Positions 3,226-42,979 of a stretch of 64,000 bases of DNA are shown here, piece after piece. The DNA comes from Marsupella aquatica. Lineage: Eukaryota; Plantae; Marchantiophyta. Each line of letters begins with the position of its first letter. Position 1 is the stretch's first letter. The notes below the pieces were generated by a model. The model was given only the letters and a program-made list of their open reading frames with translations. It did not search any database and was not told the origin of the DNA. The stretch lies in assembly GCA_973895155.1 (NCBI GenBank), contig OZ316891.1, positions 17,916,095-17,980,094 on the forward strand, in the 5' to 3' direction. Made by a program: the position numbers and the translations under genes.

Positions 3226-4378
3226 ATGTCTTCATCCTCTACAACTTCCACCACATCAGACTCCTCCTCTGATGAGGACATAGATCCTCCTCCTCAGCCT
3301 GAAACAGCCGCTCGTCGACCTAGTGGTCTACCACGCCAACTTTGCAGTTGTAAAAAATGTGTGGGGATGGTTGTCCAGAAGTCATATGTATGTGCAGACC
3401 ATATTTCTCGATATGGACAACATCGAGGTCTTACACCCGGAGCCTCTTCATCCCATACGGTGAGTTGTAAACTTACTATGGTTTATTTTTTATTCAATAA
3501 ATATTGCTAGCATGATAAGTTGGGGAAGTTTACAATCACTTTGTTGGATTTGTTCCCTATAGGTATCTAATAGGCCTACACCCACGGCACCAGCACCCTA
3601 TGTTCCCTCACAAGGAGTTCTAGATGCTATAGGCTCGGCCCTTTCACAAGCTTTCCGTTTGGTTGCAGCAGAGCGAAGTGGTGTTGGGACAGTTCAGGGT
3701 GATGGTATTGTTACACGAGGGAAAAAACGGTCTAAAAGGCAACCTAGAGGGGAAGTTGATCAGTACACCTATAGGGTTGATGGTAGGTGGGGACCTTGTA
3801 CATTCACAGGGAAATGTGTTCCTATCATAAAGGATTGGAATCCTGATTGCCTTGGTTTGCCATGTGATATAACCTATGGTGAGGAAATAGAGGTTTGGGG
3901 AAGACATTGGATTGTCAAAAGTTCTACACTAGGGGAGAGACATGGGTATGGAATTTTTTCTTGCCAGGACATCATTGTGGATGATATGGGTGGAAAAGGG
4001 CACTCTCAAGATGGACCAACGTTGTTCCCATATGGTGGACCCATTTACAAGCGAAGACATTGGAATATGCTCCTTGTACAACACCCTGAGTGGAAGACTT
4101 ATGCATTGGACATGGATACTTTTGATGGTTGCACTAGGAAGTATAGTGAACAACGTATAATTGATGGTGATCCCATCCGTAGTGGAAATATAGCCGGTTT
4201 CATTAACAGTACTATGGGGACCCAGCCTAAGCGTAGGAAAAACTGTGAATGGGTTTTTGTTGATGGTCCCCCTCCAGCATCATATGGGCAGAGATATCAT
4301 CATGACCATTGTCTAGTTGTAGCTACCAGGACCATCAAGGCCGGAGAGGAGTTGTTTACACATTATGAGTGGGATTAG
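3226..4378 (+). CDS. Zn-finger (transposase-associated-like) + SET-domain lysine methyltransferase; exons 3226-3459 and 3563-4378, ~349 aa
   Basis: Exon 1 encodes CSCKKC...CADHISRYG. The GTGAGT donor at 3460 and the AG acceptor at 3561-3562 are in phase 0. SET motifs: HGYGIF, IDG...GNIAGFINST, VATRTIKAGEELFTHY. Confidence 0.8.
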
Positions 4379-4574: not shown

Positions 4575-7500
4575 AATGTGCGACCTAGCCAAGATATGTT
4601 GCCAAGGAGGTTGAGAGCTACATATGAAGAAATGGGCATGCCACAAGACGAAGTCACATCATCAACAGATTCTTCATCCAATGACAGTGACAATGAGCAT
4701 TTGGACGAAGGGGCACCTAGGACAGATTTTGAGGTCATGCAGGACCAGGAGACAGCCATGGATGACTTCATGACAGATTGGTTTGGTGTGGACGCCCGTG
4801 TGGACGTTGATGGTGAAGGACGTGGACCACCCAATGAAGGAGCTCCTCCACCAAATGCTGCACATGACCCTCGACCTCAACATACACCAGAAGGTCAACA
4901 ACAATGGGAAGAAGCGGAGGCACATGCTAGAACACCTATTTATGGGGGTGCTCGTTTGAATAGACTCTCTGCCATCTTGGCATTGATGAATCTTCAGGCA
5001 AAACACAAGGCAAGCAATGCCCTTCTATCGGATTTGTTTGCAATTTGCCATGACCTCATGTTACCTAGTGACAATGTATTTCCAGGAACTTGGAAGGAGG
5101 CAAAGAGAGTTCTATCATCCATTGGTATGGAATATCATATCATTCATGCTTGTATGAATGACTGCATCCTATATCATGAGACCAATGCCAACATAACTGA
5201 GTGTCCAATTTGTCATGAGCCTCGATATGACAACAACATGTTGACGGAAAAGGTGCCCAGGAAAGCTGTCCGTTGGTTTCCCATTATTCCTCGATTGTTG
5301 CATATGTATCGATGTTCTGACTTGGCAGAATTGATGGTATGGCATAAGACACATCGATCAGAGGCCGGTGTCATGTGGTTGCCAGTTGACTCCCCTGCTC
5401 ACAAGCATGTGGAGGCACAATGACCAGAGTTTGCACATGACCCTCGTCATGTGAGGTTGGATTGGCATCGGATGGGGTCAGTCCACACTCCCTTGGTGGG
5501 AAAGGACGCCCAACATCAGTTTGGCCGGTGGTTGTTATGAATTACAATCTTCCACCATGGTTGTCCATGAAAAAGGGCTTCTTATTGCTTCATTGATTAT
5601 CCCAGGTCCATCTAAGGTAAAAAACATGGACACCTATTTGGCACTATTGGTTGGGGAACTCCAAAAATTATGGGACGGTGTGTGGGCCTATGATGGTCGA
5701 AAAACTACAGGGGGATTACCACGTGTCTTCAAATTGAAGGGAATCAATATGTGGACCATGCATGACTATCCTAGTAAGGGGTATGGATTGGTGTTTTTTT
5801 ATGTAATAGAGAGTTTGTTTTAAAAGAAGTCCCTCATATTTATGTATGTACATGAACTTTTTACATCCTTTGACTCTAATTGAGAAAGTTATTTTGGTTT
5901 GGGTTTGTTGCAGGGTTTGGGTTTGTTTCAGGGTTACAAACTCAAGGGTATAAGGCATGCTCCACTTGTGGTCCAAGCCTTGAAGATATGGCCAAGTACT
6001 CAAGATGGCTTCGCAAGATAATCTACCTTGGGCATACCAAGTTTCTTCCACTTGGACATGAGATGAGGTCTGACCCCCTTCTATTTTCAGACTTTGACAT
6101 GATCAATGGTGATGAGCGTGACATACCTAAGCGTACATCCTTTGCACATTGGAAATCCATAGCTGATAGGGTGGCAGACCCTAACGACCCCATGACATTT
6201 GATGGAAGTGGGTTGACGAGGTGGAGTATACTAGCAACATTGCCGTATTGGCCAGAGTTGAAGATTCATCATTTGTTAGACCCCATGCATATAGAGGGAA
6301 ACGTTGGGAAGGCTTTGATCAAGCATTTTTATGGAGAAAAGGACCATAATTTTAGGGAGGCATGCCAGGGTCTAGAACGACATCCAGATGTATGGATAAC
6401 AGTTGATGCATCAACAGGGATGGAACACCGTCCTTCAGCTCCTTGGGTTTTGAGTGTTGGTGAAAGAAGAGAGTTTCGACAACGCATAGGTCAGATGCGG
6501 TTTCCTACAGGCTATGGTGCCAATCTCCGGAAAGCTTTTGGGATGGAGGACAATCATAAGTGGCCAATGTATTTGAAGACACATGACTATCACCGTTTAC
6601 TACAACATATACTTCCTGTGGCAATCATAGGCTTGGGCAGTGAAGAAATGCAAGACGCCCTATGGTCATTGGGCACTTTGTTGAGATGGATATGCTCAAA
6701 GGAAATATATGAAGAAGAGATCCCACGGATGGAGGTATTGGCAGCAGAGGTAGTGTGCAAGTTAGAGAAGGCCCTCCCTCCTTCCTTCTTTGATTGTCAA
6801 GTACATTTACTTGTTCATCTTGTGAGGGAGGTTGCCATTGCTGGTCCAGTGCATTGTTGTTGGATGTATTGGTTGCAAGGTATATGGCTGTGTTAAAGGC
6901 TTATGTACGGAATCGTGCACGAGTGGAGGGGAGCATGGCAACAGGATACTTGGCAGCTGAGAGTATGTTCTATTGCAGCAACATCTTAGCCACCATTGAT
7001 CCTAGTTGTCCACACAGTTGGATGGAAGAGAGAGAAATGGAGGAGGATCGTTTAACAGGAGCCAAAAAAACACGCTTACTAACCGGAGTGGAGTTGACAC
7101 AGATGACTACTTTCATGTTGAGTAATAGTACTGTGATGGAAGAATGGAGAGAGTTTTATGAGGATGCAAAGAGGGAGAGTCGTCGTCCAAGGATTTTTCC
7201 AAAGTTCCTTGAGTATATGAGGGAGAAAGTACTTCAGTTGGATGCTATGGTGGCCCAAGGTGAGAGTGTATCACATTTTCCAGATATGACTCCTGAGGTT
7301 CGAACAATTGTTCATGGCCCTTTGAGACTTGTTCAGACCAGAACAACAATGTGGACACAAGGGAGACATTTCAGGATTTCTGACCTTGATGAGAAGAGGG
7401 GTAGAACTTTTGACTGTGGAGTTCAAGGGCAGTTCATGCAGGATTCACAAAGTAGCGGCCATGACACCAATGTCATCCGAGATGTGGTGCCTCACTATGG

Positions 7501-7861
7501 GAAGATAGAGGAGATCTTGATTGTATCCTATGATGCGGATACAAAATTTGAAGAGTATGTCTTCAAGTGTAAGTGGTTCAAAATTCACTTGGTTGGTGAG
7601 AATCGCACAGTACTTCTTGATGATTGTGGGTTTACTCGACTGAAGACATCGGCAACTAGCTTTCAACCATCTCATTGGCAAACATCTGAACCGTTTACAT
7701 TCCCAAGTCACCTTGAGCAGTGTTTCTATATTCCGTACCCACCAGACCCAGAGGAGTGGTCAGTTGTTATACCGTATGTGCCACAATCTCGTTCCATTAT
7801 CTCAGAAAAACCTGAAGTTATTATTGTGTCAAATGGAGGAGAGGATGAGGACCAAGTTTGA
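4575..7861 (+). pseudogene. CACTA TnpD/tnp2 transposase (Transposase_21, DUF4218 and DUF4216-like regions), disrupted
   Basis: IHACMNDCILY...CPICHEPRY, LASDG, YNLPPW, IIPGP, HDYP, LDPMHIEGN, LKTHDYH, PPSFFD..VHL.VHL, YVRNRARVEGSMA. TGA replaces Trp at 5421, with frameshifts at ~5460, ~5590 and ~6875. Intron 5774-5913. Confidence 0.92.
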
Positions 7862-7918: not shown

Positions 7919-8060
7919 TGTTGTAACTCATACTTGAGTTAAGTCTACCTTTGGGATAACTACCTATGTAACTACCCTAACTACTTAGGCCGTAGCCACA
8001 TGTACATATTCTACCAAGAGTAAAGATGGAACCAACTCTTTGTCTCATTATCCTACAACA
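7919..8060 (+). repeat. 5' LTR (142 bp)
   Basis: TGTTGTAACTC...CCTACAACA; matches 22551-22693 except for one substitution and one indel near the 3' end. Confidence 0.95.
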
Positions 8061-8074
8061 CGTTATCAGCACGA
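8061..8074 (+). promoter_or_regulatory. Primer-binding site complementary to the anticodon arm of tRNA-Ile (half-tRNA primer)
   Basis: CGTTATCAGCACGA lies directly after the LTR. Its reverse complement TCGTGCTGATAACG matches the tRNA-Ile(AAT) anticodon arm, with wobble A read as G/I. Confidence 0.7.
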
Positions 8075-10765
8075 CTCTACGAGGCTGAGCGGAGCTAGGC
8101 CATGAAATTTTTTTAAGAAGAAGGGCGAATTGAACAACGAAAAGAAGAAGACATTGATAATCTCATAAGGATCAAAGCAGGATTAAGAAAGACCGAGTAA
8201 GGCAGATCCGGGAAAGAGGACCGAAGGCAACCATTCGACAACTGTGAGCACTTTCAGAAATAAAATTTTTAACAAGGACATTGACGAATCAATGAAAGAA
8301 GCGCAACATCGTTCGAAGACGATAAGGACAACCTCAGACTGGCTGAATTTTTATTTTTTTAGGCCATGACTGATTCACTCTAAGACCTGAAGAGGCCGAG
8401 CCATGACGGAGCTTTGTTAGAGGGGCAGAGAGAGGTATGAACGAATTTGGCGATGTATCGCTGGAAAAAGCTGAATGAACGAGAGAGAGATGGCGGAATT
8501 AAGGATTGTGATGTGATGGATAAAGAATTGCGTCATAGCGTGCACAAAATTTGCGGATGAGAGAGTCCTATAGTGATGCGAGGTGAGGTCATGTCAATCA
8601 AGGAAAAAGGGATTGTTATCTCTGAAGGCGGAAGCGGCTAGCTAAAGAAGCCGAAGAGTTTTCATCAGATTCTACTAATTCCCTATCTCCACATCGGCAT
8701 TCTTTTCATGTGCATCCATGTGCACAATGTGGGCCTGGCGATGGTGAACTGAACCTTCAAAGTTTTTCCCGCGTTCCGAGGATTATGAACCGAATGGATT
8801 GTTTTCACAAACGCAAGTGAACGCCCTGCTTGATCTGACCTAAAGGAATGACAAAATCATACGCACTGGCTGAGATTCAAAGCGTATTCCAATGAATTTC
8901 GAAGAAGGAAGAACGACAAAGGCGCTTTGATGAAAGAGAATTCTCCTTTTGAAATTGACCAGACGACCCAATCTTGAACAAGGGCCCTCACACAGAGCAA
9001 GACTTACCGACCGGGCCACCGACTACCTTGAAGTCCACCTGATTCAGAGACACACAAAACTAACTACAGAGAAGAAGGATCGGACCCAGATACAATTTGG
9101 CACACAATGATAAGGACAGGGGAGAAGGAGGCCCGAGTCATTCGAGTACGATACCGCATCCAGAACGATACAAGTGCTGTATCGATTTTGGCAATAAGGA
9201 TAACAAGGCAGTGACATCGACGGCATTTAGCATGAAATATCGAGGAGGCCCCAGAGATAAGAACCAGAATGTCACATCATAGGTAGAGAAGACGGCACAA
9301 TTCACGGGACACAAACAGACCACCACAGAGCGAAATAGTGATGCGATGTGGAGGCGTTGAAATTCGGAAATGAATATGAAGGAATGCAGCAAGAAGTGAC
9401 CAGAGGGAAGGAATGAAGGAAGGAACCATGCCACAATAAGCGAGTGAAGCAGAAGATTCAGAGGATTTCCCCTTGTCGAAGGAAGGATTGGGACCAATAA
9501 CAGAAGATAAGAGAGAGCGCAAACCGGAGAATTATACTGTCGACAACCATGACCAGGCGCAGATGGAGTGAAGGACGATAGATAGAGCAAAGGACCACAA
9601 AGAAAGAAGGCATACTTGACGTTTAGAGAGCACGAAGGGAATGCCTACAGCTGACGAACAAATCTCGCAACAAAGAACTTCAAAACTTTGAGAAAACATC
9701 GAGAACATACCGCTAAGTGCAAACCCTCCTTAATTGCAAAATCCGTCAAATAGATTTGCGTATACAAAGAACAATGTGCACTGAACCAGGGAAACACACA
9801 TACTAAGAACGGGGACAAAATGGCATTAAAATGAAAGATATCTATTGGGAATATTACCATATAAGAATTGCCATTCACAAATTAAGGGGGAGAATTGTTT
9901 TTCCCAACGTGCCTATTGCATTTAAAAGCTGCCTATGGCACTTAAAAGTTAAGCTCCGTGCCTACTACACATGGAAGCAAATGAGTGCCTACTGCACATG
10001 GAAGTAAATGACAAATTGAGGGGGAGACATCAAGTAAGACTTGACATCAAGCAATGTAACCCATGGGATGTGCCTATTGCACAAGTGCCTATTGCACAAG
10101 TGCCTTTCGCACCAACGAATACCTAAAAATGGAACTCTATTCCATGCATATGGCAAATCATGAAATCTAAGGAATTTTTATAAATGATTGAACATGGTGT
10201 TAACACAATCACTTACCAATACTTGATGAGGTATACTGGATATTAAAGTACCATATGATAATATGAGGTACAGTACTAGGTCATAAGGTACCATAAGGTG
10301 AGACATGGCATGGTAAGGCACCATAAGAGATGGTGCGCCATACCCCAATATGATAACCCTATGTTGTGGATATGGTACGTGATGTGGTGCAAATAGGTTA
10401 TACCCACACCAAATCTAGGGTTGGACACCCAATCCAATTCCAAGGCCATGGATTACACCATCTCATCTTCATTTTGTACTAATACTTTGCTTTGTCATGA
10501 ACACGATTTCGGACCGACCGAGAAGTGTGTCGGAGTTCTCGTTTAGCCCGATCCCGTTTTTTTTCTAAGGCAATGCAATGACCGATAAAACTGGCAAAAA
10601 CTCTCCGAAACGCCACTTTCCTCCATTGCATCGCCGCGGGAATGTAGGGAGCGATACGTGCATCGGGTTTTACATTCCGTCAGTGAAAAAGTCCGAACTG
10701 CGAGTAACTTGGTTCGAACCGCGTAATCCAGGAATGACCACGCACTAACCCAGGTAAAAGGGGAA

Positions 10766-10819
10766 CTTAACCATGGTTAAGGGGAAATTAACCATGGTTT
10801 AGAGCGTCTCCTATATAAA
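10766..10819 (+). promoter_or_regulatory. Putative cargo promoter: duplicated TTAACCATGGTT palindrome followed by a TATA box
   Basis: CTTAACCATGGTTAAG at 10766-10781, a second near-copy at 10788-10801, and TATATAAA at 10812-10819. Confidence 0.45.
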
Positions 10820-11414
10820 GAGGAGCGGGCTGCCCATAAAACGTTTTCTTTCGCCAGAGCAAATATCTCCTGACTGAGAGCGAATACCAAACTCCCATCA
10901 AGTCTTACATTCCTCCCAAGCGATTCGACTCTTTCTACCGAAAACCCGATAAATTTATCGGAACAGCCATTCCTGTTCAAGTTCTCCATGTAAGACTAAC
11001 TAGTCATTTAGTGTAAAATGTCCAGATCCGAGCGGACTGCGATAAATTTATCGCATTTTGCATTCCTCTGTTGCAATCATTTGATCCAGTGTGTTTAGAG
11101 AGGTGTTGCCTTCATTCCGTTAAATTTATCGGAGTCTCCATTCCTTTCATGGAAAGAGGAGTAATTGAGAATTCGATAAATTTATCGGAGTTGTCATTTT
11201 TGTGAAAGATTGAATTCAGGGCTTAGGTGTTTGAGGAAGTCATATTTTCAATTCGAATGCGGAGTGCGATAAACTTATCGCATCCTCCTGTGAGAATCAT
11301 TTTCCTTTGTTTTGTTTGGAGACTCATCTTCATCTCTGATGTTGCAGTGTTGCCGGGTTTAGGAGGCACAACGGAAGGTCGATTGCACTCCGTGGACAAC
11401 AGGTATTGTGACAA

Positions 11415-11744
11415 ATGGCTGTCTTCCTTGAAAATCGTGTCAAACGTGCACGCCGGTTGTACAAGAGACTCGTGCGACTCAAAGTTCTCCCCATCGGTAT
11501 AGGAGCATTGTGGATGGGTGGTACTGATCCTGGAGATAGGCAGAATCCTCTCCGCATTGAATTCTGCGGAATGAATGATGCAGGAGTTCCAATTTGTTCG
11601 AGGTTGATGTTAATGGCGTGTTTACATTCTTTGGAGTTTTCTTGTAACTATTGTTGTCGTCGTCTTGATAACAAGTACCACAAACAGGCTCACTTCTGTT
11701 GTAAGATTTGGAACGAAGACCCTTGGGTGAACCTTTCACGATGA
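11415..11744 (+). CDS. Transposon cargo ORF, basic and Cys/His-rich, function unknown
   Basis: ATG-initiated 109-aa ORF (RARRLYKRLVRL; CNYCC...H...HFCC). Confidence 0.4.
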   Translation: MAVFLENRVKRARRLYKRLVRLKVLPIGIGALWMGGTDPGDRQNPLRIEFCGMNDAGVPICSRLMLMACLHSLEFSCNYCCRRLDNKYHKQAHFCCKIWNEDPWVNLSR

Positions 11745-11932
11745 GTGTTTCGACCTTTTCATTGAGGCGCATCTTGGAAGGACATATTTAAATAAACAAG
11801 TCCTACCCTTGCGCAGCGAATATAATACGTCATGAGTCCTAATCGTTAAACTGTCGTGCAGGGTTGGTACTGTGTTTGGTTACACCTGGTGATTGAAGGT
11901 ATTTTTATTGGTGGTTTTGGTAGCTCTGCTTC

Positions 11933-12481
11933 ATGGCTGCATCGGAGAATCTAATCGTTGCAAAGATGGGATCCGTTTTAGCCCACGAGCGTAGGAAATA
12001 TATTCGAGGAAAAGTGCCCGGTGTGGAATGCGGAAGTTTTTTGAATGGACTTCCCGATGAACTCGTTGAATCTCACATTTGGCCCCTCCTAGCATTGTCT
12101 TGCACACAAGATGAAAACCTTGGCCTTGACCTAAAACTTCTACCAGAAGAACGACTAACTCGAATGAGAACAATCATTTGTCTTGGAGCCACCTCGAAGA
12201 AATGGAACCATCTTGTTGTTGGTACACGATTTTGGGCGCTATTGAAATATGCAGTCCGTGAGATCAATGACATAAACAAAATGCTCGCAAGCATTCCTAA
12301 TGCCGTCCTTCTCTCAAACCTACATATTGCTAGGGTCTTCCGAGAGGAAACTCATTTCCTCCCTCCCATAGATATGCTTGGGTGCTTCTCGTATGACCGA
12401 TTAGATGTGTTTCTTAGAGTTTGGGTGAATCTTGGAGAAAGCGGGAAGCGGACAATTCTTGCATGGCATGGACGAGTCTGA
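11933..12481 (+). CDS. Transposon cargo protein with an F-box-like motif
   Basis: FLNGLPDELVESHIWPLL...ICLGATSKKWNHLV...FW follows the F-box pattern LP.E....I...L....L..V.K.W..L. Confidence 0.6.
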   Translation: MAASENLIVAKMGSVLAHERRKYIRGKVPGVECGSFLNGLPDELVESHIWPLLALSCTQDENLGLDLKLLPEERLTRMRTIICLGATSKKWNHLVVGTRFWALLKYAVREINDINKMLASIPNAVLLSNLHIARVFREETHFLPPIDMLGCFSYDRLDVFLRVWVNLGESGKRTILAWHGRV

Positions 12482-12773
12482 GTGGATGAGGCATTGCAGC
12501 GAACATCCGATAAATTTATCGCACTCCTCATTCCTCTAGTCGATTTTGGGTGCTTGTAAAGAAACACTTTGAATATAATTGACTCTGCCTCCCCTGACTT
12601 CGGGTTGTGTGGTCCAGAGTGTATTTTTTTGCGCCTCTTCGGACGATTAGCTGACAAGTGCATTGGCTTCACAGCCCGTTATACAAGGTACTGTAAAGTT
12701 GGATGAAACTTGTAGAATTGTAATTAGTATGTTCTCCAAAATTTATTCCTGATTTCTATTCGGTGATCAGGCC

Positions 12774-13250
12774 ATGCTCGAGCGACGCATTTTTGTACCC
12801 TTCCCGGATCCTCCAGAATGGGGGAATGGAGCCATGCTGGACCAGCTAAGGAGGCTGGATGAGTCACTAATTTTAAAGATATGTAGGCTGGTAGTAAAAC
12901 CGTTTTACCATAACGCATTTCACTTCTACGTAGATCAGGTAGGGGGAGAAATTTATATTCGGTGGGATAGATATGTTGGATTTTCTAAAAGAGTTATCCT
13001 ACTCTTTCTGAAAATTGGTGCAGTAAGACGTTTTATACTCCACTGCTGTCATGTTGTGAAGGGCAATCCTGCTTATGAGCCAGAATTCTATGCCGACAAC
13101 AGACGTAGAGCATTCGATGAGATTCAGGATGTGATTGACGAGCTAGACAATCCTCTTGCCACCGAGTTTTTTATTGACACTGGTGGGAAACTATATTCAT
13201 ACAAGATTCGTCAACTCCCCCCCCGGCCAGCCGGTCCGTGGGCTCTTTAA
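12774..13250 (+). CDS. Transposon cargo ORF, function unknown (158 aa)
   Basis: ATG in GCCATG context just after a CAG acceptor; globular-looking composition. Confidence 0.45.
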   Translation: MLERRIFVPFPDPPEWGNGAMLDQLRRLDESLILKICRLVVKPFYHNAFHFYVDQVGGEIYIRWDRYVGFSKRVILLFLKIGAVRRFILHCCHVVKGNPAYEPEFYADNRRRAFDEIQDVIDELDNPLATEFFIDTGGKLYSYKIRQLPPRPAGPWAL

Positions 13251-13711
13251 CTTGATCTATGTAAGTTGCCTGTGGACGAACGTCCTTGCCAATGGTGAGA
13301 TCTGTCCATGTTGCACAAATGCTTGTTGTGACATTCCGTCACGCCGATATTCAGTAGCAATAGTGAATCCTGAGACTGGTGAAGTTGATTTCCATTGGCT
13401 GTGGGCTTATGATCATCGCGTCACTCATATTCCCCAATGGCCCAAGAAGCGGATCGAACGCTTTGCTCTGGCGAGGTTCAACTATGATTAGGGTTTAGGT
13501 TTAGGGGTTAAGGTTTTGGATTTAGGGTTCCGTAGCTGATTCTTCGACCTGTACACTCGGCCGTCAATTTAAAGAAGGCTCACTTTTGCGATAATTTTAT
13601 CGGTCTCTTTGTCCTTGTGTGATGAGATGTCGTGTCCACATGTGCTGTGAGATTGGCGGCGATAATTTTATCGCTCTTTGCATTGGAATTTGTTTATTTG
13701 CAGACTTTTCC

Positions 13712-16700
13712 ATGGCTGCTAGTGGAAAGAGTGGATCTGCTGAGGCAGAAAGTCTCATGACAAGCCTCACCAATGCAATTTGGACAAGTGAAGACATTTG
13801 TGAAGGGATCAAGTGTATCAAGAAGTCATGGTACTTCCGTGACGCCAGATTACAGTCCACGGGTTTCGAAGACTGTGTTACCCCAATCCTTTGGGTCCAG
13901 TTGCAAAAATCGGCGAAGGTTAATGTTTCGTATGGCCCTGTCATTGTTGTTGCCGTCGTCGAGTTCATGGTTGGCCACGGGGAGGGAAAAGTGTTGACAG
14001 AGGGCCTTAGTTTCTTGACAATGTGTGGGCGCAAGGGTTTCACATCTCTCATTGTTACTCTCGATAACTTTGATGAGAAATCGATGGACAGTTATCCAGA
14101 AGATCCCCTTGTTGCTGATGTTCGGGCAGCAAGAGAGATGAATGTTATGGGTTCGGCTTGGATCGGCCAGTATGTGCAAGATTGTGATGCCATCATGCTT
14201 CCAAGGGTGAACGCAGAGTACAAGAGACTTGTGGGTGAAGAGTTCAAACCTGTCCGCAAAATTGTTTTCAAGAAACCAGGTTCAAGTGGAAGCGGTGGTT
14301 CTAATGCCGATAAAATATCGGGGCGGAAAGAACCATTGCAATCCTCTACACATATTGACGTGGACGAACCTACAACTTCTGGTCGGGTTTCGGGAAGTGG
14401 AAAAGGGAAAGGGAGAGGTAGCGGCAGGGGAGATGTCGCGGGAACCTCTGACGGTGGGAAGAAGAGCCAGGAAACTGGCGGTAGTGGGAGAGGCCGGGGC
14501 AACCATTGAGGACCATCCATTAAACCAAGCGAAAGTAAAGGATCCGAGGGATCCGGGCCATCTGGTTCTGGACTTAGCACAAAGAGGAAGAGGACTGGTT
14601 GGACTGAGACGGTGGCTGCAGAAGTAGATAGAGCTCCATCAATTCCATCAGTTCCAGTCGCGGTTCCTACGGCGCCATTGGTAAGTACTACGTCGTTGTA
14701 CTGTTTAACAAATACGAAATCCGATAAAAATCTCGCTATTTATTTCCTGAATTGCGGATTGTGGAGTTATGTTGAACAAATGCGAACTCCGATAAAAATC
14801 TCGCAGTTTCTTTCCTTAATTGAATTTGCAACGCTTTTGTAGGCTGATCAGGAGGAGGAGACGGCTCTTTCGATGTATGAGACGGACGCGATCAAGGCAG
14901 AGCTCAGTCTTCTGATGCAACAAAGGGTGCAAAGGACAACTGTGCTTCTGCATGTCGACAATCTCATATTTGATGAGGAGGGGGATTTGACAACTTTGAT
15001 TAGACCAGTGGATAGATTGCATGTGGAAAATATCAAGATACTTCTCATGAAAAACCCCACCAACTTCAATGCCCCGTTCGTGCTGTGTGTGGATCCGAAG
15101 GATTGTCCCACAACCGCAGATTGGGACATCCTGAAGTCAAGGGTATGGAAGTATAGAATTATTGGAGGGAATCATGGTGCTCGGGCAAAGTCCGAGTTGT
15201 TTAAAATGTACAGGAAGCAAATATATGGTGAGCTGGAAGCTTGGGTTTACGCTGGGCTTACGAGATCCGAGGTCCGAAAGTTAGGCTTCCAGCATAACTA
15301 TGACCAGGAGTATCGGAAGAACATGACTAAAATTGACCAAGTTCGGGCTTGTCACAATATTTTCCTTGAAATGGGTGTGGGCTCGACTAAAGATGTCCGC
15401 GAAGCATGTTGTCAAGAATGCATGATGGAGTACACGCCAGGAGTTCGTGACTCCATGGCCAAACATGATCCGGCTTTCCAAATTGCTTTCCGAACAGGTG
15501 AAATTTGGGATCTTCAGGAGCAGATTTTCCAGATGTGGGAGAAAGGTATTGTCTTAGGACAACCCAAAAAAATTGTGGCAACGACGAACACAAAGGGAAA
15601 GGTGAAACCTTTGACGGTAAGGGAGATTAAAATGAATAAACTTGCTGGTGACCTCAACTTAAATTCATTTCGAGGTCTCCAAGGACTATCAAATAAGGAG
15701 CATGTCAAGCGCCTCTTGAATAGGGTTATCGGGAAGGTGATCACTTTGGATCAAATGCACAAGGAAGGTGAGAAGTTGAAAAAGCTTGCCAAGGTGAAGA
15801 AACTATTTTTGCAGATATCTGGTCAGCCAGATTGGGCAACATGCAGAGAAATGTTTCCCAACGAAACAGATGTCTCGGTCCTTGGCATATGGGCGGAGAA
15901 ATTGAGTGACGCGGTAAGCATTCCTCTCACAGCATGCTCTATCGCGAGATTTTTATCGGCTTTAGCATTCCTTTGTTGGTTTCTAAGCGATTCCATTTAT
16001 TGGCTAGCGTGCTCCATCGCGAGATTTTTATCGGCCTTAGCATTCATCTCACGCTATTCTAATTGTAGATGTGTCTGACATTCTTACAGCTGAAGATTAA
16101 TTCAAAAAGGAAAAGCAAAGTGGTTCCGGCTGTCACTTATAATTCTGCGGGGGAGGTTATTGTTCCCTCAGCTGAAATCCCTTATGTGTTTAAGAATTTT
16201 GTGCTTGCTGCAATCGATAAGTACAATCGGCTGAGGTCCTTAGGCGAGGGCACAGCAGAAGCGTTTGAACAAACATGGAAAAATGCAGACGGGGATTCTT
16301 TTCCCTACTATCTCCATGTTGGTGATGTTCGAATTTTGGATTCTTTTGTTCAGCCAAGGGCTTACACCCTTGCGGTTGCGGATATTCCGTATGGTTTTAA
16401 TGCTCCTGGTTCGGAGTTTGATGAAGTGGCCTTCACAGAAAAGGACATTTTAGACATGTTGACAAGTTTCTCAAAGATGACGACCGCTAAGCAGTGGAGG
16501 TTTGTTGTGATCCATTCACTACAACAAACGCATATGGTGATGTCTGCACTGGAGAGTGTATGCAACTGTGGGATCGAGGCTGGAATCTGGGAGAAGACTA
16601 ACATTCATGAGCGTCCCGCTGGAGCTCGATTGGCGTGGGGTTTTGAGAACTGGTCGATAGGTTTCTATAGCGAGGAAGGCATTCGGAACATGAACATGTA

Positions 16701-17202
16701 CAATTTCCAACCGGATGAGTCTCGCGTCAATATCATCAAGGTTCCATGTGTAACCAAGAAGTCCGTTGATCCGTTGGGATTTGTTGTGAACCCATATCAG
16801 AAGCCTGTTGGTTTAGGGGCTTGGTTTGTTTCCCATTTCTCTGAGAAAGAGGATTGGGTTATTGATCTTTGTTGTGGAACCGGATCGACATTAGCTGCTA
16901 CGCTCCTCAATTCTCGCTAGGGTTGTGCTGTTGATAAGAGTTCTACGCAGATTGGTTTTGTAAAATCCCGGATCATGATTCTGGAGTCAAATTGGAATTT
17001 ATATGAAGAATCCCAGATTGAAGGGCACGGCGTTGAAGGTCATGAGATTCAACCACCAATTGCAGGCCAATTGGGTGTACTCGGGACATCGACTTACGTA
17101 GTTGAGGTCGTGAAGGAGACCAAAGAGGAACAAGAAGAAACTGAGGAAGAGCCTCCCAGAACACCAAATGAGGATGATCTCAATGACATGTTATTAGATT
17201 AG
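13712..17202 (+). pseudogene. ParB/Srx-like domain + beta-class N6-adenine/N4-cytosine DNA methyltransferase fusion (~1050 aa; exons 13712-14680, 14843-15913, 16090-17202) with two nonsense codons
   Basis: Both introns are GTAAG...AG in phase 0. ParB-like RPVD..HV..I...PFVLCV...YRIIGGNHGARA at ~15000-15190. MTase motif IV DIPY (16381), NPYQKP, then motif I DLCCGTGST (16864) give the beta order. In-frame TGA at 14507 and TAG at 16918, with the reading frame continuing after each. Confidence 0.85.
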
Positions 17203-17530
17203 TTGCGTGTGCTTGTTAGGATAATGTCAATCACCAATGAAGTTGTCGATAAATTTATCGACTTCTGTATTCCATGAGGAAGAACCTTTGTCACATTTAT
17301 TAATGCAATAAATTTATCGGACTTTGCATATATCGGACTGTCGCGGTGTTCCTGCTGGGGGAATGGAGTTGTCGATAATCTTATCGGACAGCATTGTATT
17401 CTCTAACTGGTTTGTCATTGCAATTATTTAAAAAAAAAGATATCATTATAGCTTCGGAGTACATAGTCCCAGAACGATAACCACTGTACATATTCATGGG
17501 AACGATAATCATTATAACTTAAACCTGAAA

Positions 17531-20500
17531 CTAGCTTCGACTATCAACGACTACAGTCTCCATTGCATTTTGAATGATTCGTCTTGTTTGTATAGGGAGA
17601 GTACTATTTGCCAATAACGCAAAGTTATACGCATAAACGGCAGTTTCTGATAGGGACAATTCATCCTCCAGTACTTTGCTAGACGAAGCCTCTTTCTCCG
17701 GATAATATCTGCCTTCAATTGCAGACTCTTCCTCCGAATCCATTGCATACCAAGTGATTTTAATCCGCTCCGGGATGTCGTTAATTCTTGTGAGAATCTC
17801 AGTCACTTTTGCCATCCAGAATGGTCTTCCCTTGGGATCCTGATGGGCTGCTACACATATCATTGCAAATTTAGTATTCACCTCTAGATCCTTGAAGTCT
17901 CCAATTTCCGTGACTTTTCTTCGACTTCCGGAATACATGACTGTCCTCACACCCGCTACTTTATCAACCAAGCTAGGTTCCATTGCTGCTTCCGTAGGAT
18001 TACTCGGAAGTTCTCTCTGTACGTTTACCTTGGGCCAACTCCAATCAAAACTCCATTGTGCAGGTTTCAGGTGGTGCTGAATCACTTCTTTTTGTTTGTC
18101 AAAAAAACGACCCCACCATAGACGATCTGCGTCGTCAAAGTAATTGAATCCATCTTCAATTGCTCTTCGATATTTTTGAAGAGTTGACAAATAACTTTGA
18201 GCCGCCGGCTCATCTTGTTCCTCAGCATCATTCTCTTGCTCTTCATTGTCTCCTGTCGCTCCCGTGGCCGACTTCAATGCCATTTGTGGTGCGACCCACA
18301 TTCCAGATGATGGAATGTACCAAAAAAAATCCACCGTCTCCCCCCAATCGATTGTCGTTGAAAGATGTTTGGCATGGAATACGGACCGAGCACTTCCATC
18401 TTCGAGTACTCTAGTAATCCGAAATTGTTTTTGAGCACTTATGCCGTGGAGAGTACGTAGAACCTGACCATCCATATCCTTGTCATTTGCTTGATCCTTG
18501 TCTGACACAAATTTCTTGAAATCGGTAACCTCGTCGACGAAAAATATCTTTGCCGTAGGATTGTAGGATTCCTCTATGATTGCTGAAAGAGTGTCCAACC
18601 GGAAAGCTTTCCGCTTGTTCAATTTTGAAGAAAACTTGCTAAACATTTGATCAATTTGATCATGGGTGTGCCCCACCAGTAGGAAACCAACCTTTATTTT
18701 CTGGAAAACACCTATCTCCACCAACATATTCAAATATGCCATAAGATATTTATTCTTGTTTTCCCGAGCTGTGTTATCAAGCTGGAGGTAAAGCACTGGA
18801 GGGAGCAGACCTTCCCAGGTATTCAGAATATGCTGGATAACGTGGATGGTCAGGTTGCTATCATTGTGAATATTTGGATAGTTCAAAAAAACATTTGAAC
18901 TTAATTGTTTGTTGAAGATCAAACAACCCACTACGTGTACGGGGATGAAATACTTTTCATCCATATTCTTCGGACACCGAATGAAATGAGGTAACTCTGT
19001 CTTCTTTTGATCCATTCCATCAATACAGATGCCCAAATATTTCTCCGGACTCTTGTAACATTTGCTCCGGTGCTTTGCTAACTTCTCCCTCTCGACTGCT
19101 TGTGCCTTCCGATGCTCGTTTAGCAATGTTGAGAATTTTCCTACAACAATAAAAAAATTTAGGACAAAACATGATAACCGCAATGTTGAACCCTGACAGC
19201 GATAAATTTATCGGGTTCAGTATTCAAACACGAGACCGTAATGATAAACCCTGACAACGATAAATTTATCGGGTTCAGTATTCAAACACAAGACCGTAAT
19301 GAAAAACTGTGACAGCGATAAATTTATCAGGTTCAGTATTCAAACTGTTCAAACGATATATTCACTCACATGGCCAAAGAAGAAGCACATGAATACTCAA
19401 CCCGATAAAATTATCGGGAGTAGCACACAGGTTTAGAAATTTACTCTTTTCTGCTTCGAGTGTTGCCTTGTCACGGAGTGCTTTGAATTCAGTACACGGG
19501 GCGCAGGTGGAGAAACGGCTCCTTTTGGGGATGCGCACGCGAGGAAACTCCTTGTTCCAAATGCGAACAAACCACGAATATGTCATGCCTTGTTCTTGGC
19601 GCATTAGAGTTTCGGACTGGAAGGCATCAAAAACTTCTGTTTTTGTCCAATTGTCAGGTAAATGAAAGATATCCTTGTTGGGGAGACTCTCGACATTTGT
19701 GGAAAAAAAATCATCCAACCATTGGACGAGACCAAGATGTGCGGGTGATTTTTCTCGACAAACTGTACCGATCTATATCCGACAAAACATGTTCTGCGAG
19801 ATTTTTTGGAGACGATTATTTCCCAGTGAAAATAATTTCTTAAAACCACTTCGACAAAAGGATCTACCGCTAACTGAGTAACCACTTGCACCAGCATGCC
19901 CACCCTTCACACATCCTCTTAGAAGGACGTTCTTCTCTGGGTAGGATAGCCCATAGTAATAAGTGCGTTGTTTCGTCACGGCTAGCAGACCCAAATTCCG
20001 CAGACAGTAATTATCACAACACGAATACTTATGAATTTCTCTCATTTTGTTTCTATTCAATTTGTCATTTATCACATTGTCTTTCCTAGTAATTCGGTCC
20101 CTATCTTTTTTACTAGGCTCATTTGACTTCTCTACAACCTGAAATCCGTTCATAACATTGGCATTTTCGGGTCCTTCAGGTGCCTCGTGAATAGATGCAT
20201 CACTCTCTGCTGAGCTACCATCCTCTATAGATCTCCTTGACGCATTTAGAGGGGCACTGAATAGACGACTATAGCTATTCTCTTCGACAGCTCCTTCTAA
20301 ACATTCAGACACAACTTGTGCTATTATATCGGATTCTCTATCTCCTTCCTCATCTTTGTCCTCCGATGCACTCGACTCATCTGAAAACACAATTGGACTC
20401 CGTGGCTCTCTATACATAACCCGAACGCCACTAAGACCTCTCCTTGATACTTGGAGCCTGGAACCAATGACAGTCCGCCCTTGAGAACTTGGAGATTCTG

Positions 20501-21122
20501 GATTCGCACGTGCAGTCCCAACGACTCCGCGAGCTGCTGGAAAATTGAGCACTTGTTCACCACGATTCCCACGGACCATTCGAGAAAGGGCCGAGTCTGG
20601 ACTTCGCAGTCCGATTCCCTCGCTTGCTCGCACATCCAGTCCAGGCAATGCAAAGACCGATCGCCGTATCGGTCTTTGTATTTCTGTGTCCCGATCCTCA
20701 CCCGGAGACTGAAAGATCCGTCGTTGAACTTGTGTTGAATGTGGCAACTTGAATGCCGACTGCGATACGCGTATCGGTCGCCGGATACCCTCTCCATAAC
20801 CCGGGATGGATGGCCTGAAGCGACGTCTCGGACCTAAACCTGGGATTGAAAGTTTCTCATTTCTTGGCGATGGAACGCTCAAGAGACGATGCTTCTCAGG
20901 TTTACTAGGCGACACATAGTAAGCACTGGGCTCAGGACCAGAACTTGCATCAGAATCTGAGTCAGAGATTTCGGGCACTATTTGCTGTGAGAGAGGTAGA
21001 GCTTTAAGTATGCGACTTGGCAAACAGCGAGCGACAAGATTAGGAGAGGATTCAACTGAACTGGAAGGTGAATCTGTGTCTGATTGAGACATGGCTATCC
21101 GAGACACTATGGGGCTTTGCAT
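17531..21122 (-). pseudogene. Sola-like (DUF7869-type) DDD transposase; exons ~21122-19445 and 19140-17531; one nonsense codon
   Basis: IDGMDQ...LQLDNTARENKN...FLLVGHTHDQIDQMFS catalytic motifs and Cys clusters SCCDNYCL and FSTCAPC. Intron 19444-19141 restores the frame (EK-R-KFS). In-frame TAG at 19773-19775. Confidence 0.85.
19177..19345. repeat. ~58-bp tandem repeat (3 units) in the transposase intron, each carrying the 14-bp palindrome
   Basis: CCCTGACAGCGATAAATTTATCGGGTTCAGTATTCAAACACGAGACCGTAATG-like unit; palindromes at 19200, 19258 and 19316. Confidence 0.9.
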
Positions 21123-22550
21123 TCCTCCCACAATCAGGGAAAACGAAAGGCTCAACGGACAGAATGTTGCTCCAAGAACACAACTCCCAAAACTCTACTC
21201 TCGATAATGATGCCAAAAACTTATCGGCGGTGGCCCTTTTATAGTGTCTGTTGAGGGGTTGGCCCACGTGTCCACTTTTGATTGGCTGTCACCCTAAACG
21301 ACAAAATAGCAGAAAAGGGTATATTTCTTGGATTTCCAATTTCATTCTCACACGTGCATCGTGGCAAAATTATATAGTTTTGAAATTGAAGCGATAAATT
21401 TATCTGATGTTGGTATTGCAAAAGTGGTTCCTTCATATGGAAGTTGCAATTTTGAAATTGAAGCGATAAATTTATCTGATGTTGGTATTGCAAAGAGTTT
21501 TCTTCATATGGATAGGAATTTTGAAATTTAATCGATGAACCGAAGGATCTTAGTATTGTCGACTAGTATTTTTGTCGCCCGTAGTTTTTGCGATAATTTT
21601 ATCGGACTGCGCATTGCTGTTGAAAGAATGGCATGTTGACTATGGTCACTTGCGGAGGTAACTGGTCAATTGCGGAGGTAACTGCAAGGTAAATTTGATG
21701 AACCGTGCAGTAATTCTTATCGACTGTGATGTAAAATATTTTTGGTAAATATCCAAAAACTGAGAAACCTGAGATTGGGTCGGAGTTTTCGTGGCTCAAA
21801 TCCGGAGTTCGATACAGTTATCGCACTTGGCTCGAAACATGGATATGGATTTATAGATAAGACCTTTCATATATCTTCGGAGAGCGTGAATATGAGGTCG
21901 AGGAGAAAGTTTTTCGGATCTAATTGTTCCTTGATAATATGAATGTTTGTTAGCATGAATTTCATTGGTTTTGATCATTATTAAATTTGTTGTTTCAATC
22001 CGAACTCCGATACGAATTACATTATTTCCCCAAAAACGCATTTTTGATGAAAAAAACTGCCAATTTCGCGAGATTCGGCGGAAAATAAAAATACACTTCT
22101 CGTTTAGAGGAAATAGTTCTCGTTCGGTCCGAAATTGTGTTCATGGCATGTAATCGGTGACCATCAAGGAATCTCCATTTCCAGATTGGAAGATCTTCAA
22201 CAAGCCTATAGTGCTAACAAGCACCTTAAGAGACTTTGTAGAAATTACACATACACTATATGCTTAAACCCAATTATGTTACACCCATGGGGATGGTAAT
22301 ACTCTTTCCTCCCACAAAGAAAGTAGGGGAGGTTTTAATGAGGTTACATCCCCGACTTACACTTTACCATGCAACATGAATTATAAGACATCTATTAGGA
22401 GAAGCTTGACATTCATTTATAGTAGACTTGAGATGGCTACACCATTTATAAAATAGACTAGACATAAACAAAACCTATTGCATACCACTGAATATACCCA
22501 AAGTAGACTCTTGATTGTAACATTTCAACCCCAATGTTACAAAGGGGGAG

Positions 22551-22693
22551 TGTTGTAACTCATACTTGAGTTAAGTCTACCTTTGGGATAACTACCTATG
22601 TAACTACCCTAACTACTTAGGCCGTAGCCACATGTACATATTCTACCAAGAGTAAAGATGGAACCAACTCTTTGTCTCGTTTATCCTACAACA
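22551..22693 (+). repeat. 3' LTR (143 bp)
   Basis: Preceded by the PPT and followed by TSD CTATC. Confidence 0.95.
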
Positions 22694-23399
22694 CTATCAT
22701 GGTTTTATTTATATTTACCTATTTATTTTCTTCTTTTGTCTTACAAACACTTGGACTTTGAAATTTCATTTTACTGCTATACATGCAACCCTAGCCACTA
22801 GAAAAGTTCTCCTCATGCATGCCACCTTTTTTAAATCCCTAGCTTATAACCTAAACACATGCATTCTCCATCTTCTAAAGTTTTCTCTCAAAAATTTCCA
22901 TTCTGAAAACTTTGCAAACAACTCTCTTTGTGAAACATTTTTTGAACCAGACAGGAATGAATTTTTGAACCTCTTGTGAATCCAATTCCATCGGTACTTG
23001 TGATACAAATACGTTCTCAAACTTGCGACCAAATTGGCTTCGGTACTTTGCAACCCACCGTTCTTCACAACACTTTCCGAACATAATAGGTTCACAAACC
23101 ATTTGTGATAGTATTAGTCTCGCTAAATTATGAACCAAAATGTATCCGAATACGGTCGCGATGGTCGCGGACTCACAAAGTTGTTGCGAGATAACTAGTA
23201 TCTAAACGTGTTGCGAAGTCAATAACATCAAAACTTAATTGCGATGTATGTAGCTTCGCAACGTGAATGTGCGATGGTAAGAACATGGGATATTGTGATG
23301 CGTGTTACATCACAAAATATCTGAAGGTTCTAACATCGCAAGGCCTTTTCGACTTCAAAAAACACCTTCGCAAAAGGGGCCGATATGTAGTAGTGTTTA

Positions 23400-33480: not shown

Positions 33481-36400
33481 TACACAACCATCGTAAGAAG
33501 AAACAGGAATGACACGATGATCACCTTCCAGGCTGCAAATGAAAAGCACAACATGAATTCTTGGCCTAAGCCTGGCAATGAAATAGAGAACTGAGAGATG
33601 TGTGGGCAAAGCCTAAATGCGCTTTCATGAACCTGAACAACAACTTGTCTTGACTCTGCTCCACCCTTCGTGATCCCCCTCGGGATTTGGCTCCACTCTT
33701 TGACAGCCTTGCATGGGTTACCAATGTGGGCCAGCGACTCCCCGTGACTGTCACAACAAGCGTCTTCGTGCGGCCCAGTCGAAAGTGGAGTTGCCGTTGG
33801 GTAAGTGGCTGTCGCGATGTCCCTCGATCAAACACTCTGTCAAAGCAAATGGTGGATTGCATGATTGAAGACTACCAAAGGAGGCAAAAAGTCTCCAGTC
33901 CTTTCACTAATCCAAAGGATTGTCAACAACCAAGATTAGCACATCTAAAGTCAAAAAGGACTTAAACAAATCAAATGCGTATAAGATGCATTCATTAGTA
34001 TTTCAGCTCCCGAGGTAACCCCTTTCTTGTCGCAACTCTAATTTATGAGTGAAGGACAACCGGTTCTCTAGGAGAGTGCTGGCACTATTAGTTCTGCGTG
34101 GAGGACTTTTCAAAAACAAGGAGTCAAAGTCCTTTGGAGAAACTCATTTTTTGTCCCGACATGTAATTTACAGTTGGACAACTAGTTCTGTGGGAGAATG
34201 TCGTCGGTGCTACTAGTTTCGCAGGGAATTTTCAAAATCTAGGAGTGAGAGTCCTTCTCACTTAGGCGCGAGCTACAATTTGTTCAGAAAGTATCAAAGC
34301 CGAGCGCAAGGGTCCATACTTAGCCTCGTGAAGCACAAGATGGATGCCTCTGTGAGAATTCATTCAAGAGCAGTCGTGCGATGATGTGAGATTCAAGATG
34401 TTCTAATTTGTGTTGCCTTCAAAGCATGGGGAATGAGCTCATGCAAAAAGGAGGGTAGGGTTTACTTGAAGCTCTCCCAAACAGCCAATCAAGCTGCAGA
34501 TTTAATTTGCGTCTGAAGCTTCACGGATGACATTCAAATCCGAGCATGAGCAAGGGGAATGAGCGCAAAAAGGAGGGCAATGAAGCTGCAAGTTTTATTA
34601 GGGTCTGAAGCATTGCTGATGATGACGGGAACTTTGGGAAAGAGTGCGAAGGAGGTCTGAAGAGGATCAAAGGGTTGAATATTGACTCAAATCACTCACT
34701 AGCAGCCATCATCGGCAGAATTGAGGTAAATATATGCCTCAATGCTTTTGTTTTCGAAGAGGAGATTTTTCTTTGCACTGAAGAAGCAAGGACGTTGGAC
34801 AGAGTATGTGATGATTGACAGAATCAGAGTAGCTTAAATTTTGAAAGGCTTTGTTTGTTAACAAGAGTTCAAGTTGCGTTAAAGTCTGGAATGACCAACA
34901 TTGGCCTTTAAAATACCTAGCCTAGCTTGTGGAACGCAAAATAGGTAGCAACTCTGGAAAGTTCTATGATTGGGTTAAATTGATTGAAAGAGCAAGATCC
35001 GTGGTATGATGTGAGATCCATGCTCTGATAAATCCATGTTGCCTTCAGAGCATGGGGAATGAGTGCAAAAAGGAGGTTCAATGAACCTGCAGATTTATTA
35101 GGGTGTGAAGCTTTGCTGCCGACATACATTTGAATCCGAATAGGAACTTCAAGAAAGAGCATGGAGAGGAAGGTCAAGCAATCAATCAAATCAGTATTGG
35201 CAGCTATCTTGAACAGAATTGAGGTACATTAAATTAAATTGATTTGCTTTTGTTTTGAAGAGGAGAAGTTGCTTTGGACTGGAGAAGCAAGGACACTAGC
35301 TAGACAGAGTATTTGATGATCGACACAATTTAGGGAGTTCCCAGTTTGAAAGGCTTTTCTTAGGGCTTTTCTTTTTCAAGAGGAGAAGTTGCATTGGACT
35401 CGATCAGGAAGGGTAGCAAGTCTAGAGATTAAATGTGATGATTTTGTGAGGTATCTTCTAAGTCATGAATTGAAATTGGATCCCTAGGACGTAGGTGAAT
35501 TTGATTCTATGAGGGTGGGCGGCCTTTGATTGGTAAAGGAAGTTGAACACCCCGACGTATTAAATGCTCCATGATTAGGCTGAAATGGCTACTCTTAATC
35601 AGGTATCCGATGCCCTAGCAAGAGAGAGGTTGGAGAAGCAAAGGTTGGCAAATCGCAAATCCAAGTTGAAAAGACAAGAGCAAATAGCAAACGGTCAGCA
35701 CATAGGTGGTCAACAGGCAGTTCCCACTGATGAAATGATTCATGAAACACAACAACAGTGCAATCTCATGATGGAGAGTGCTAAGCAGCAATGTCAAGAT
35801 TTAGTGATTGATGGCAACCGAAGGCAAAGAGAGTTATTGGCTGCTGGGCAATCAGAGGCAATGAGAATTACTAGTGAGGCTCATGAAGCTGCCGCTGTGA
35901 TGTTGCGTACAGCCCGGGAAGAAAGTGAAAATCTCAAGGAGGCTGCGCATTCATGCCATTTTGAGATTTTAGAGTCTAGGCGGAGGACCCTAAGGGCAAG
36001 CATTCCAACACAGGTCAACGCCCACATTCGAATGCCAAGGCAGAGCACCCAAACTGCTTGCACTCAAGTGCATGCAGCCCACCTTCATCCACTAAATGAA
36101 GGTGAGCACGATAATTGTGGTTGTGATGACCAATTGCAGGAAGATTCCATTCTTGAGAAGAGGAGGAAGGATGCAGACAAGAAGAGATTTGAGTACCAAA
36201 GGAGCAAGCGCTCTGTTCCAGAAGACGGTGTAACTCCCAACCGAAAGAGAAGGTGCATTACAATTGTGTTATCAGATATAGTTAGGTACATTTTGGAGAA
36301 GACTGCTACATTCAATGTAGGTGCAAAGAGGGCAGTACTATCTGGTATCTGGTTGCACAAATACTTGAAGAAGTACCAGCCTACAAGACTAGGTTCGCCT

Positions 36401-42912: not shown

Positions 42913-42979
42913 CTGCCAAACTGAAGCACCTCATTCTCAAAATCAAGAATTCAACAATTTGAATCAAACAAACTAACCA

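Follow-up and report, generated by a model that had tools for sequence, protein, structure and literature searches.

A predicted ParB-like and amino-methyltransferase fusion gene carried by a Sola1-like transposon of the liverwort Marsupella aquatica, with a candidate target palindrome

Transposon cargo that pairs a ParB-like domain with a DNA methyltransferase (MTase) has recently been described. In Sola1-1_Ec32 of Ectocarpus, a gene for a 1,104-amino-acid protein with ParB-like and N4-cytosine/N6-adenine MTase parts lies opposite the transposase gene, and self-binding and self-modification have been proposed for it (PMC12477816). This element has AACCG-CGGTT ends and a 4-bp target duplication, and its best match is a Physcomitrella Sola1 transposase (PMC12477816). 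Here we analyzed a stretch of 64,000 nucleotides of the liverwort Marsupella aquatica (GenBank assembly GCA_973895155.1, contig OZ316891.1, positions 17,916,095 to 17,980,094 of the forward strand), referred to as the window and numbered from its first letter. The window contains a Sola1-like DNA transposon whose cargo gene is a land-plant case of this ParB and MTase pairing, with a candidate target site. Our statements about published systems refer to parts of the sources cited, and 10.1101/2021.02.12.428880 and PMC4455052 were also drawn on.

Like Sola1-1_Ec32, the Marsupella element combines ParB-like and MTase parts in one protein of similar size (1,050 versus 1,104 amino acids), carries this cargo on the strand opposite the transposase, and invites the same idea of self-modification. 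Its AACAC-GTGTT ends and its 4-bp CATG duplication also resemble those of the algal element. The two are likened by description and not by sequence, and they differ in host (land plant versus brown alga), in length (11.6 versus 21.5 kb) and in their terminal inverted repeats (TIRs; about 32 versus 282 bp). Moreover, a candidate palindrome is present here, whereas the parts of the Ectocarpus account that were covered give no target motif.

Two further systems are informative. In Plavaka elements of Bostrychia, PAG2 joins a PF01555 methylase to a SET domain, while PAG3 joins ParB to a 2-oxoglutarate oxygenase and has inverted repeats beside it (bioRxiv 10.1101/2025.02.11.637652). There, as here, PF01555 methylase and ParB-like domains serve as cargo and inverted repeats lie near the ParB gene; however, the Plavaka domains are divided between two proteins, the transposase is of the EnSpm/Plavaka type and the repeats form tandem arrays beside one gene, whereas the liverwort element has a single protein and dispersed sites. 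In Arabidopsis, the sites of VANC21 are found in VANDAL21's introns, in the stretches between its genes and in non-coding parts at its termini (PMC5735166). The liverwort element similarly has an accessory gene and a short motif amassed in its own non-coding parts, with the cargo protein as the putative reader. VANDAL21 differs in being a Mutator element with an unrelated protein, which acts by loss of 5-methylcytosine (5mC) through a non-palindromic 9-bp motif that varies between families. In contrast, the palindrome described here is common to families at 55-60% protein identity and is accompanied by a candidate writer enzyme.

The cargo gene and its predicted protein

The cargo gene was assigned the following parts.

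13712..14680, plus strand: exon 1, N-terminal domain (about residues 1-190) and a G/S-rich linker that contains KRKR; nonsense codon at 14507-14509
14681..14842, plus strand: intron 1 as predicted from conservation, GT-AG, phase 0, 162 nt, two palindrome copies inside
14843..15913, plus strand: exon 2, predicted ParB/Srx-fold domain (about 14921-15322), then a helical region; box GNHGARA at 15167-15187
15914..16089, plus strand: intron 2 as predicted from conservation, GT-AG, phase 0, 176 nt, two palindrome copies inside
16090..17202, plus strand: exon 3, basic SKRK patch, predicted beta-class amino-MTase and acidic tail; nonsense codon at 16918-16920
16381-16392, 16789-16806 and 16864-16884, plus strand: exon 3 motifs IV (DIPY), X (NPYQKP) and I (DLCCGTG)

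A preliminary description of this DNA had proposed that five open reading frame (ORF) fragments belong to one frame of about 1,050 amino acids, joined through two phase-0 GT-AG introns and broken by two nonsense codons. The joined exons agree with this proposal: each has a length divisible by 3, together they comprise 1,050 codons, and the only stops in the joined frame are at codon 266 (TGA, 14507) and codon 957 (TAG, 16918). All motifs named in that description (KRKR, IIGGNHGARA, DIPY, NPYQKP, DLCCGTGST and the acidic tail) were located where it had placed them. Intron 1 has the boundaries GTAAGT..TAG and intron 2 GTAAGC..CAG; the length of intron 1 is a multiple of 3, yet an in-frame TAG lies at its end.

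The splice sites were compared with ten related loci (L001-L010) from metagenome contigs, for which 49 stretches were examined; L001-L007 come from one assembly. A phase-0 GT after exon 2 and a CAG before exon 3 were found in all five loci covering junction 2. At junction 1, where the check covered the acceptor and not the donor of intron 1, CAG preceded exon 2 in all three covering relatives. The relatives that keep these sites are at 55-62% identity, and in the homologue P0060 the frame continues through junction 2 where predicted. Since splice sites are kept in relatives and P0060 reads through junction 2, we infer a single spliced three-exon gene. None of the contig joints listed skips intron 1 or intron 2, which is uninformative on expression, and a search among 3,114 candidates found no fused protein of greater length, which is weak evidence.

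Exon 3 is predicted to encode a beta-class amino-MTase with the motif order IV-(target recognition domain)-X-I. Its match to Pfam N6_N4_Mtase (E 1.4e-4) scores 22.3 bits, below the cut-off of 26.7, while the homologues P0005, P0007 and P0017 pass the cut-off with 32.9-33.3 bits and PHROG DNA methyltransferase families match P0005 with E values down to 2.9e-15. When the exon 3 model (predicted local distance difference test, pLDDT, 68) was searched with Foldseek, the best matches were CcrM (E 1.1e-11) and N4CMT (4.3e-10), followed by M1.HpyAVI, BceJIV, RsrI and PvuII, at 13-19% identity to the solved structures. Four phage PF01555 MTases are collinear with exon 3, three of them with DPPY and one (mEp515) with DLPY. 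The beta-class assignment and IV-X-I order of the preliminary description thus held up, on the CcrM match and on this collinearity. The combined profile and structure check that it had suggested for the ParB and amino-MTase folds was run and gave structural matches for both, the N6_N4_Mtase profile match being sub-threshold.

We collected 32 homologues of exon 3 (from 592 candidates) at 49-76% identity. Motif IV reads DIPY in 22, DVPY in 4 and DILY in 1 of the 27 that cover it; the Asp, the second Pro and the Tyr are kept and the first Pro is replaced. Motif I follows DLC[CSA]GTG in 22 of 24 matched homologues, with 8 fragments outside coverage. The predicted enzyme shares its fold and its IV-X-I order with CcrM, M.RsrI, M1.HpyAVI, M.PvuII and the bdelloid N4CMT, but differs from them in its D[IV]PY motif, its fusion to ParB, its introns and its location on a transposon. 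Like MpDN4MT1 of Marchantia and N4CMT, it appears to be a eukaryotic beta-class amino-MTase of prokaryotic type; those two, however, are host genes with SPPY, MpDN4MT1 having no extra domains and N4CMT a chromodomain. This comparison of motifs and domains gave no sign of orthology with either. The first residue of motif IV as a rule for N6-methyladenine (6mA) versus N4-methylcytosine (4mC) has exceptions, and fold matches of 6mA-type and 4mC-type enzymes score alike. With SPPY versus DPPY as the guide to 4mC and 6mA, an Asp in first position favors 6mA (PMC8885841), and intact copies would more likely modify N6-adenine than N4-cytosine.

Relatives outside plants were sought in several ways. 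The phage matches to the cargo protein have 22-41% identity over parts of it. No annotated ParB was found beside the MTases in four phage regions; one candidate, upstream of a Vibrio phage MTase, was rejected when the gene there proved to be a helicase. Neither the viral contigs (57 and 62 stretches) nor the prokaryote genomes (32 stretches) scanned with family-specific patterns contained a relative, and exon 2 had no tblastn match among phages. Green-algal cases are reportedly covered by Iyer et al. (2011). ParB-linked MTases have been listed in phages and algae, together with few N6-adenine MTases in land plants (Iyer et al. 2016, PMC4738411).

According to the latter source, eukaryotic N6-adenine MTases have often moved to RNA (PMC4738411), and METTL3/14 are among the fold matches of exon 3 from rank 42 on. 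The enzyme might accordingly act on RNA, for example on element transcripts, or protect excised or replicating element DNA instead of placing marks on chromatin. We consider this very improbable, as the top fold matches are all DNA enzymes and the fused partner belongs to a DNA-binding family.

The N-terminal part of exon 2 is predicted to adopt a ParB/Srx fold. Its model (pLDDT 64) gave nine Foldseek matches at E<=0.001, all to ParB, Noc or PadC, with 6sdk at E 7.9e-5. VIA alignment placed it with PadC (Z 11.4, root-mean-square deviation 2.8, 100 residues aligned) and KorB (Z 9.3, deviation 2.5, 94 aligned). Structure prediction therefore bears out the ParB-like domain that had been proposed, though a profile search of the window protein and its homologues gave no Pfam ParBc match for exon 2. 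The proposal had also pointed to a missing arginine; indeed, the box reads GNHGARA in all 15 homologues covering it, and the usual arginines are missing family-wide. In ParB CTPases, the register of the cytidine triphosphate (CTP)-binding box is G-E-R-R. A CTP-driven sliding clamp is unlikely because the box is without arginines needed for CTP binding, which was lost in the R103A and R104A mutants of Caulobacter ParB (PMC8367383). The protein resembles the ParB, Spo0J, Noc and KorB CTPases in having an N-terminal ParB/Srx fold followed by a helical region and a candidate palindromic site of 14-18 bp; unlike them, it reads GNHG where they have the G-E-R-R box, is without a ParA partner and shows a weak helix-turn-helix match. 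Residues 160-227 give a weak structural match (Z about 4.5) to TetR-type domains. We found 16 homologues of exon 2 at 51-80% identity, and its Atlas links lead to DUF3723 clusters (0.95, 78% of members; 0.94, 22%) and to unnamed phage clusters.

The N-terminal domain is kept at 27-32% identity in L001 and L003. It gave no Pfam or PHROG match and no convincing Atlas or PDB match, its Atlas matches (scores 0.76-0.77) being leads only. An identity as a pentatricopeptide repeat protein was rejected, as the matches were summed 4-bit repeats.

The transposon, its relatives and the decay of the window copy

The element around the cargo gene has the following features.

10500..22141: Sola1-like DNA transposon, 11,642 bp, ends AACAC...GTGTT, TIRs of about 32 bp
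17531..21122, minus strand: DUF7869 transposase gene, tail-to-tail with the cargo gene (Pfam DUF7869 E 1.5e-49); predicted intron 19444-19141, start codon approximate, exon model predicted, in part from L006
11924-12481 and 12753-13250, plus strand: further ORFs in the element, sub-threshold F-box-like match (E 0.055)

Judged by its ends, its 4-bp duplication and its DUF7869 transposase, the cargo element appears to be Sola1-like. The TIRs match at 28 of 33 positions, and CATG is duplicated at 10496-10499 and 22142-22145. An empty-site joint (10494>22141) was present in three of four sequencing runs; runs X5 and X7 had small shares and were used for the empty site only. The joint fits a CATG duplication with AAC...GTT ends, but would also be compatible with GAAC ends and a duplication of 2 bp. 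The preliminary description had suggested an old horizontal acquisition riding on a transposon. The TIRs, the empty site and the transposase support the location on a transposon, while the phage matches described above, at 22-41% over parts, establish no donor, date or route of transfer.

Other structures of the element were also seen. One contig of run X4 joins 15555 to the left end of the element, reflecting one copy inserted into another, and contigs skipping 8.7-9.9 kb within the element (with joints including 11289/21210) are deletion derivatives. ORFs of 185, 165 and 114 codons lie within 11924-13491, outside the span of the related loci.

Among the six close loci (L001-L006) the cargo gene is kept in all, and the transposase lies tail-to-tail with it in four; in L003 and L005 the sequence stops about 300-360 bases past the cargo gene, before the position of the transposase. 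The linkage between cargo and transposase thus appears fixed. The four distant loci (25-40% identity) have no such transposase. L007 keeps the C-terminal exon of the ParB part. In L007-L009 (30-40%), the MTase is interrupted by an additional intron at a conserved IW position, and the palindrome array is absent. Motif IV is DIPS in L008, which has a decayed appearance. L010 encodes, at 210-1411, a distant PF01555 protein (25%) in which motif IV reads DSNY and motif I is probably followed by an intron.

The ratio of nonsynonymous to synonymous substitution rates (dN/dS) between L004 and L005 was 0.075 for exon 3 and 0.06 for exon 2. In the remaining 14 and 9 pairs synonymous sites were saturated and the proportion of nonsynonymous differences was 0.13-0.35. 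With a dN/dS of about 0.07, these comparisons show that purifying selection on the gene and on its catalytic and S-adenosylmethionine-binding motifs is strong. They also bear on whether the gene is a passively captured sequence, as in Pack-type elements, or a chance succession of separate ORFs, as the two stops of the window copy might suggest. Exon structure, linkage and orientation are kept across elements with saturated synonymous sites, and the junction is in frame in P0060; this explanation is already largely refuted and scarcely credible.

In four sequencing runs, between 288 and 955 contigs aligned to the gene, with identities of 85-99+%; their depth gives no copy number. At both 14507 and 16918, C in place of T made up 88-100% of contig depth in the four runs (variants on the gene being the best 40 of 322). 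Other copies carry sense codons at these positions, so each of the two stops arose by a C>T change in the window copy. The transposase frame is interrupted as well, by an in-frame TAG at 19775-19773. These data revealed that the window copy belongs to a multicopy transposon family and has decayed to a pseudogene. Over the element, majority differences affect about 1% of sites, and 73 of 118 (run X2) and 74 of 114 (run X4) are T>C or A>G. We determined the context of 24 such listed sites, after dropping one row with a single contig and one that was a minority variant in three deeper runs; 9 are CG and 8 CHG (17 of 24). The excess and its context are a footprint of 5mC deamination. Pseudogene status within a multicopy family, the element's own palindrome and the published Ectocarpus cargo were all absent from the preliminary description.

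A palindrome array and its putative reader

10652..21823: palindrome CGAK-N6-MTCG, 21 dispersed copies, commonest form CGATAAATTTATCG; 19 of 21 outside assigned coding segments

With up to 3 mismatches allowed, CGATAAATTTATCG occurs 24 times in the window, always within the element. The relatives have their own repeated words, whose common core is CGAK-N6-MTCG. The element has 21 occurrences of this pattern, where samples from a dinucleotide model predict 0.66, and the remaining 52 kb of the window have two. L001-L006 contain 20, 6, 11, 6, 5 and 3 matches (51 in total, 50 of them non-coding; 0.09-0.29 expected), while spacers of 0-12 other than 6 give 0-5 matches per sequence. The array is thus amassed in the non-coding parts of its own element, as the VANC21 sites are in VANDAL21.

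We propose, with a probability of roughly 50%, that in intact copies the ParB part binds CGAK-N6-MTCG and the MTase places a mark on the DNA of its own element, which likely helps the element to remain active. The ParB part would dock on the palindromes of its own element, more likely by site binding than with a CTP-driven sliding clamp. The MTase part would then methylate an amino group (6mA more likely than 4mC) at or near the palindromes, and the mark on the element's own copies would likely keep them transcribable against silencing by host 5mC. We infer that intact copies are expressed and catalytically active, that the fusion protein is what binds the palindrome, which base it modifies and that the element benefits. 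A stronger form, ParB-guided amino-methylation in a land plant in which the fusion writes 6mA or 4mC at parS-like palindromes set in each intron and gap of its element, as a private mark countering 5mC silencing, is tentative and on balance unlikely. If true, it would be a transposon that writes, and does not erase, its own mark; the site would be defined, and the family appears to be catalytically intact.

Several observations weigh against our proposal. L007, a more distant ParB-MTase fusion, has a single pattern match, in coding sequence, and L008, L009 and L010 have 1, 0 and 0. The degenerate pattern was derived from the same sequences in which it was counted, so the expected counts are no formal test, and L001-L007 represent one assembly. 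The helical region matches ParB DNA-binding domains weakly (Spo0J E 0.089; HTH_ParB in 3 of 17, best E 0.043). The window copy did not escape 5mC, because it bears the deamination footprint. In addition, a second DNA transposon (35579-43436) harbors an internal palindrome of its own, AAGGACTATAGTCCTT, in 37 copies (with up to 3 mismatches allowed) that lie between its coding segments and after them; this transposon gave no match to ParB or to an MTase. Palindrome arrays can therefore arise without a ParB-MTase gene.

This neighbor, together with the presence of the fusion but not the array in L007, leads to a different account, in which the palindromes would be sites of the transposase, serving synapsis or self-activation, and the ParB-MTase would be co-inherited and act on another or a broad target without guidance by the motif. 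Transposases, proteins derived from them and TnpA do bind clustered cognate motifs (bioRxiv 10.64898/2026.08.24.746577). However, TnpA binding was terminal in the parts of that work covered, whereas only 3 of the 21 palindromes lie within 500 bases of the element ends, the other 18 lie farther away and the TIR contains none. Furthermore, inverted repeats adjoin PAG3, and proteins of the ParB family bind repeats of this kind. We regard the transposase account as a serious but rather unlikely one.

The departure of motif IV from DPPY and SPPY also counts against our proposal. It raises the question of whether the protein binds the palindromes while its MTase domain is dead or minor, a DNA-binding or scaffold module that would recruit host factors in the manner of VANC or block host methylation. 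The sub-threshold Pfam score of the window domain (22.3 versus 26.7 bits) and the DSNY of L010 would agree with this, as would the ParB box, where the loss of catalytic arginines implies that the fusion tolerates loss of catalysis. Nevertheless, the Asp, Pro and Tyr of motif IV and motifs X and I are all kept under strong purifying selection, P0005, P0007 and P0017 pass the Pfam cut-off, and a phage MTase has DLPY. A dead or minor enzyme therefore seems improbable to us.

Surroundings of the element and meaning for land plants

The transposon lies within a further mobile element.

7919..22699, plus strand: short-LTR retroelement hosting the insertion; long terminal repeats (LTRs) 7919-8068 and 22551-22699, target duplication CTATC

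The LTRs are 150 bp long and 97% identical, and enclose about 2.8 kb of internal sequence without a long coding frame. This multicopy retroelement itself lies inside a CACTA-type element (Transposase_21, DUF4218, DUF4216). Beside the CACTA-type transposase (4575-7861) is a SET-domain ORF (3563-4378, E 5.3e-7); it is possibly a second chromatin-modifying cargo gene, by analogy with the SET domain of Plavaka PAG2. Degenerate telomere-like TTAGGG/TTTAGGG tracts occur at 2057-2721, in the CACTA-type region, and at 13487-13515, just upstream of the cargo gene. The second transposon, which we take to be Sola2-like from its motifs SDG..QFK and HGKG, includes a minus-strand ORF (42331-42930) to which no family was assigned. 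The ratio of observed to expected CpG, which is confounded by age and was not used, was 0.68-0.83 in coding DNA of the cargo family, 0.37 in the neighboring CACTA and Sola2-like transposases and 0.73 in a Gypsy-like stretch. Farther along are an intronless MAPEG ORF (48303-48776, E 7.7e-25; microsomal glutathione transferase-like, possibly a retrocopy) and a host gene on the minus strand (55000-59100) encoding a glutamine-rich, TAF4-like protein with an RST domain.

Our full-text literature search, with Repbase entries outside its scope, found no published account of ParB and MTase transposon cargo in land plants; for Ectocarpus, a Sola1 element with this kind of cargo has been published before, which makes the plant case less novel. 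The layout that it shares with the brown-algal element points to an old pairing, or to one that has been transferred among eukaryotes. The plant family lends itself to testing, as many copies carry sense codons at both breaks, purifying selection on its motifs is strong, and a single short palindrome, kept across elements with saturated synonymous sites, provides a defined candidate site. If our proposal is true, the family would supply land-plant chromatin with 6mA or 4mC from a mobile source, in addition to Marchantia DN4MT1, and would represent a second mechanism of self-targeting, beside VANC.

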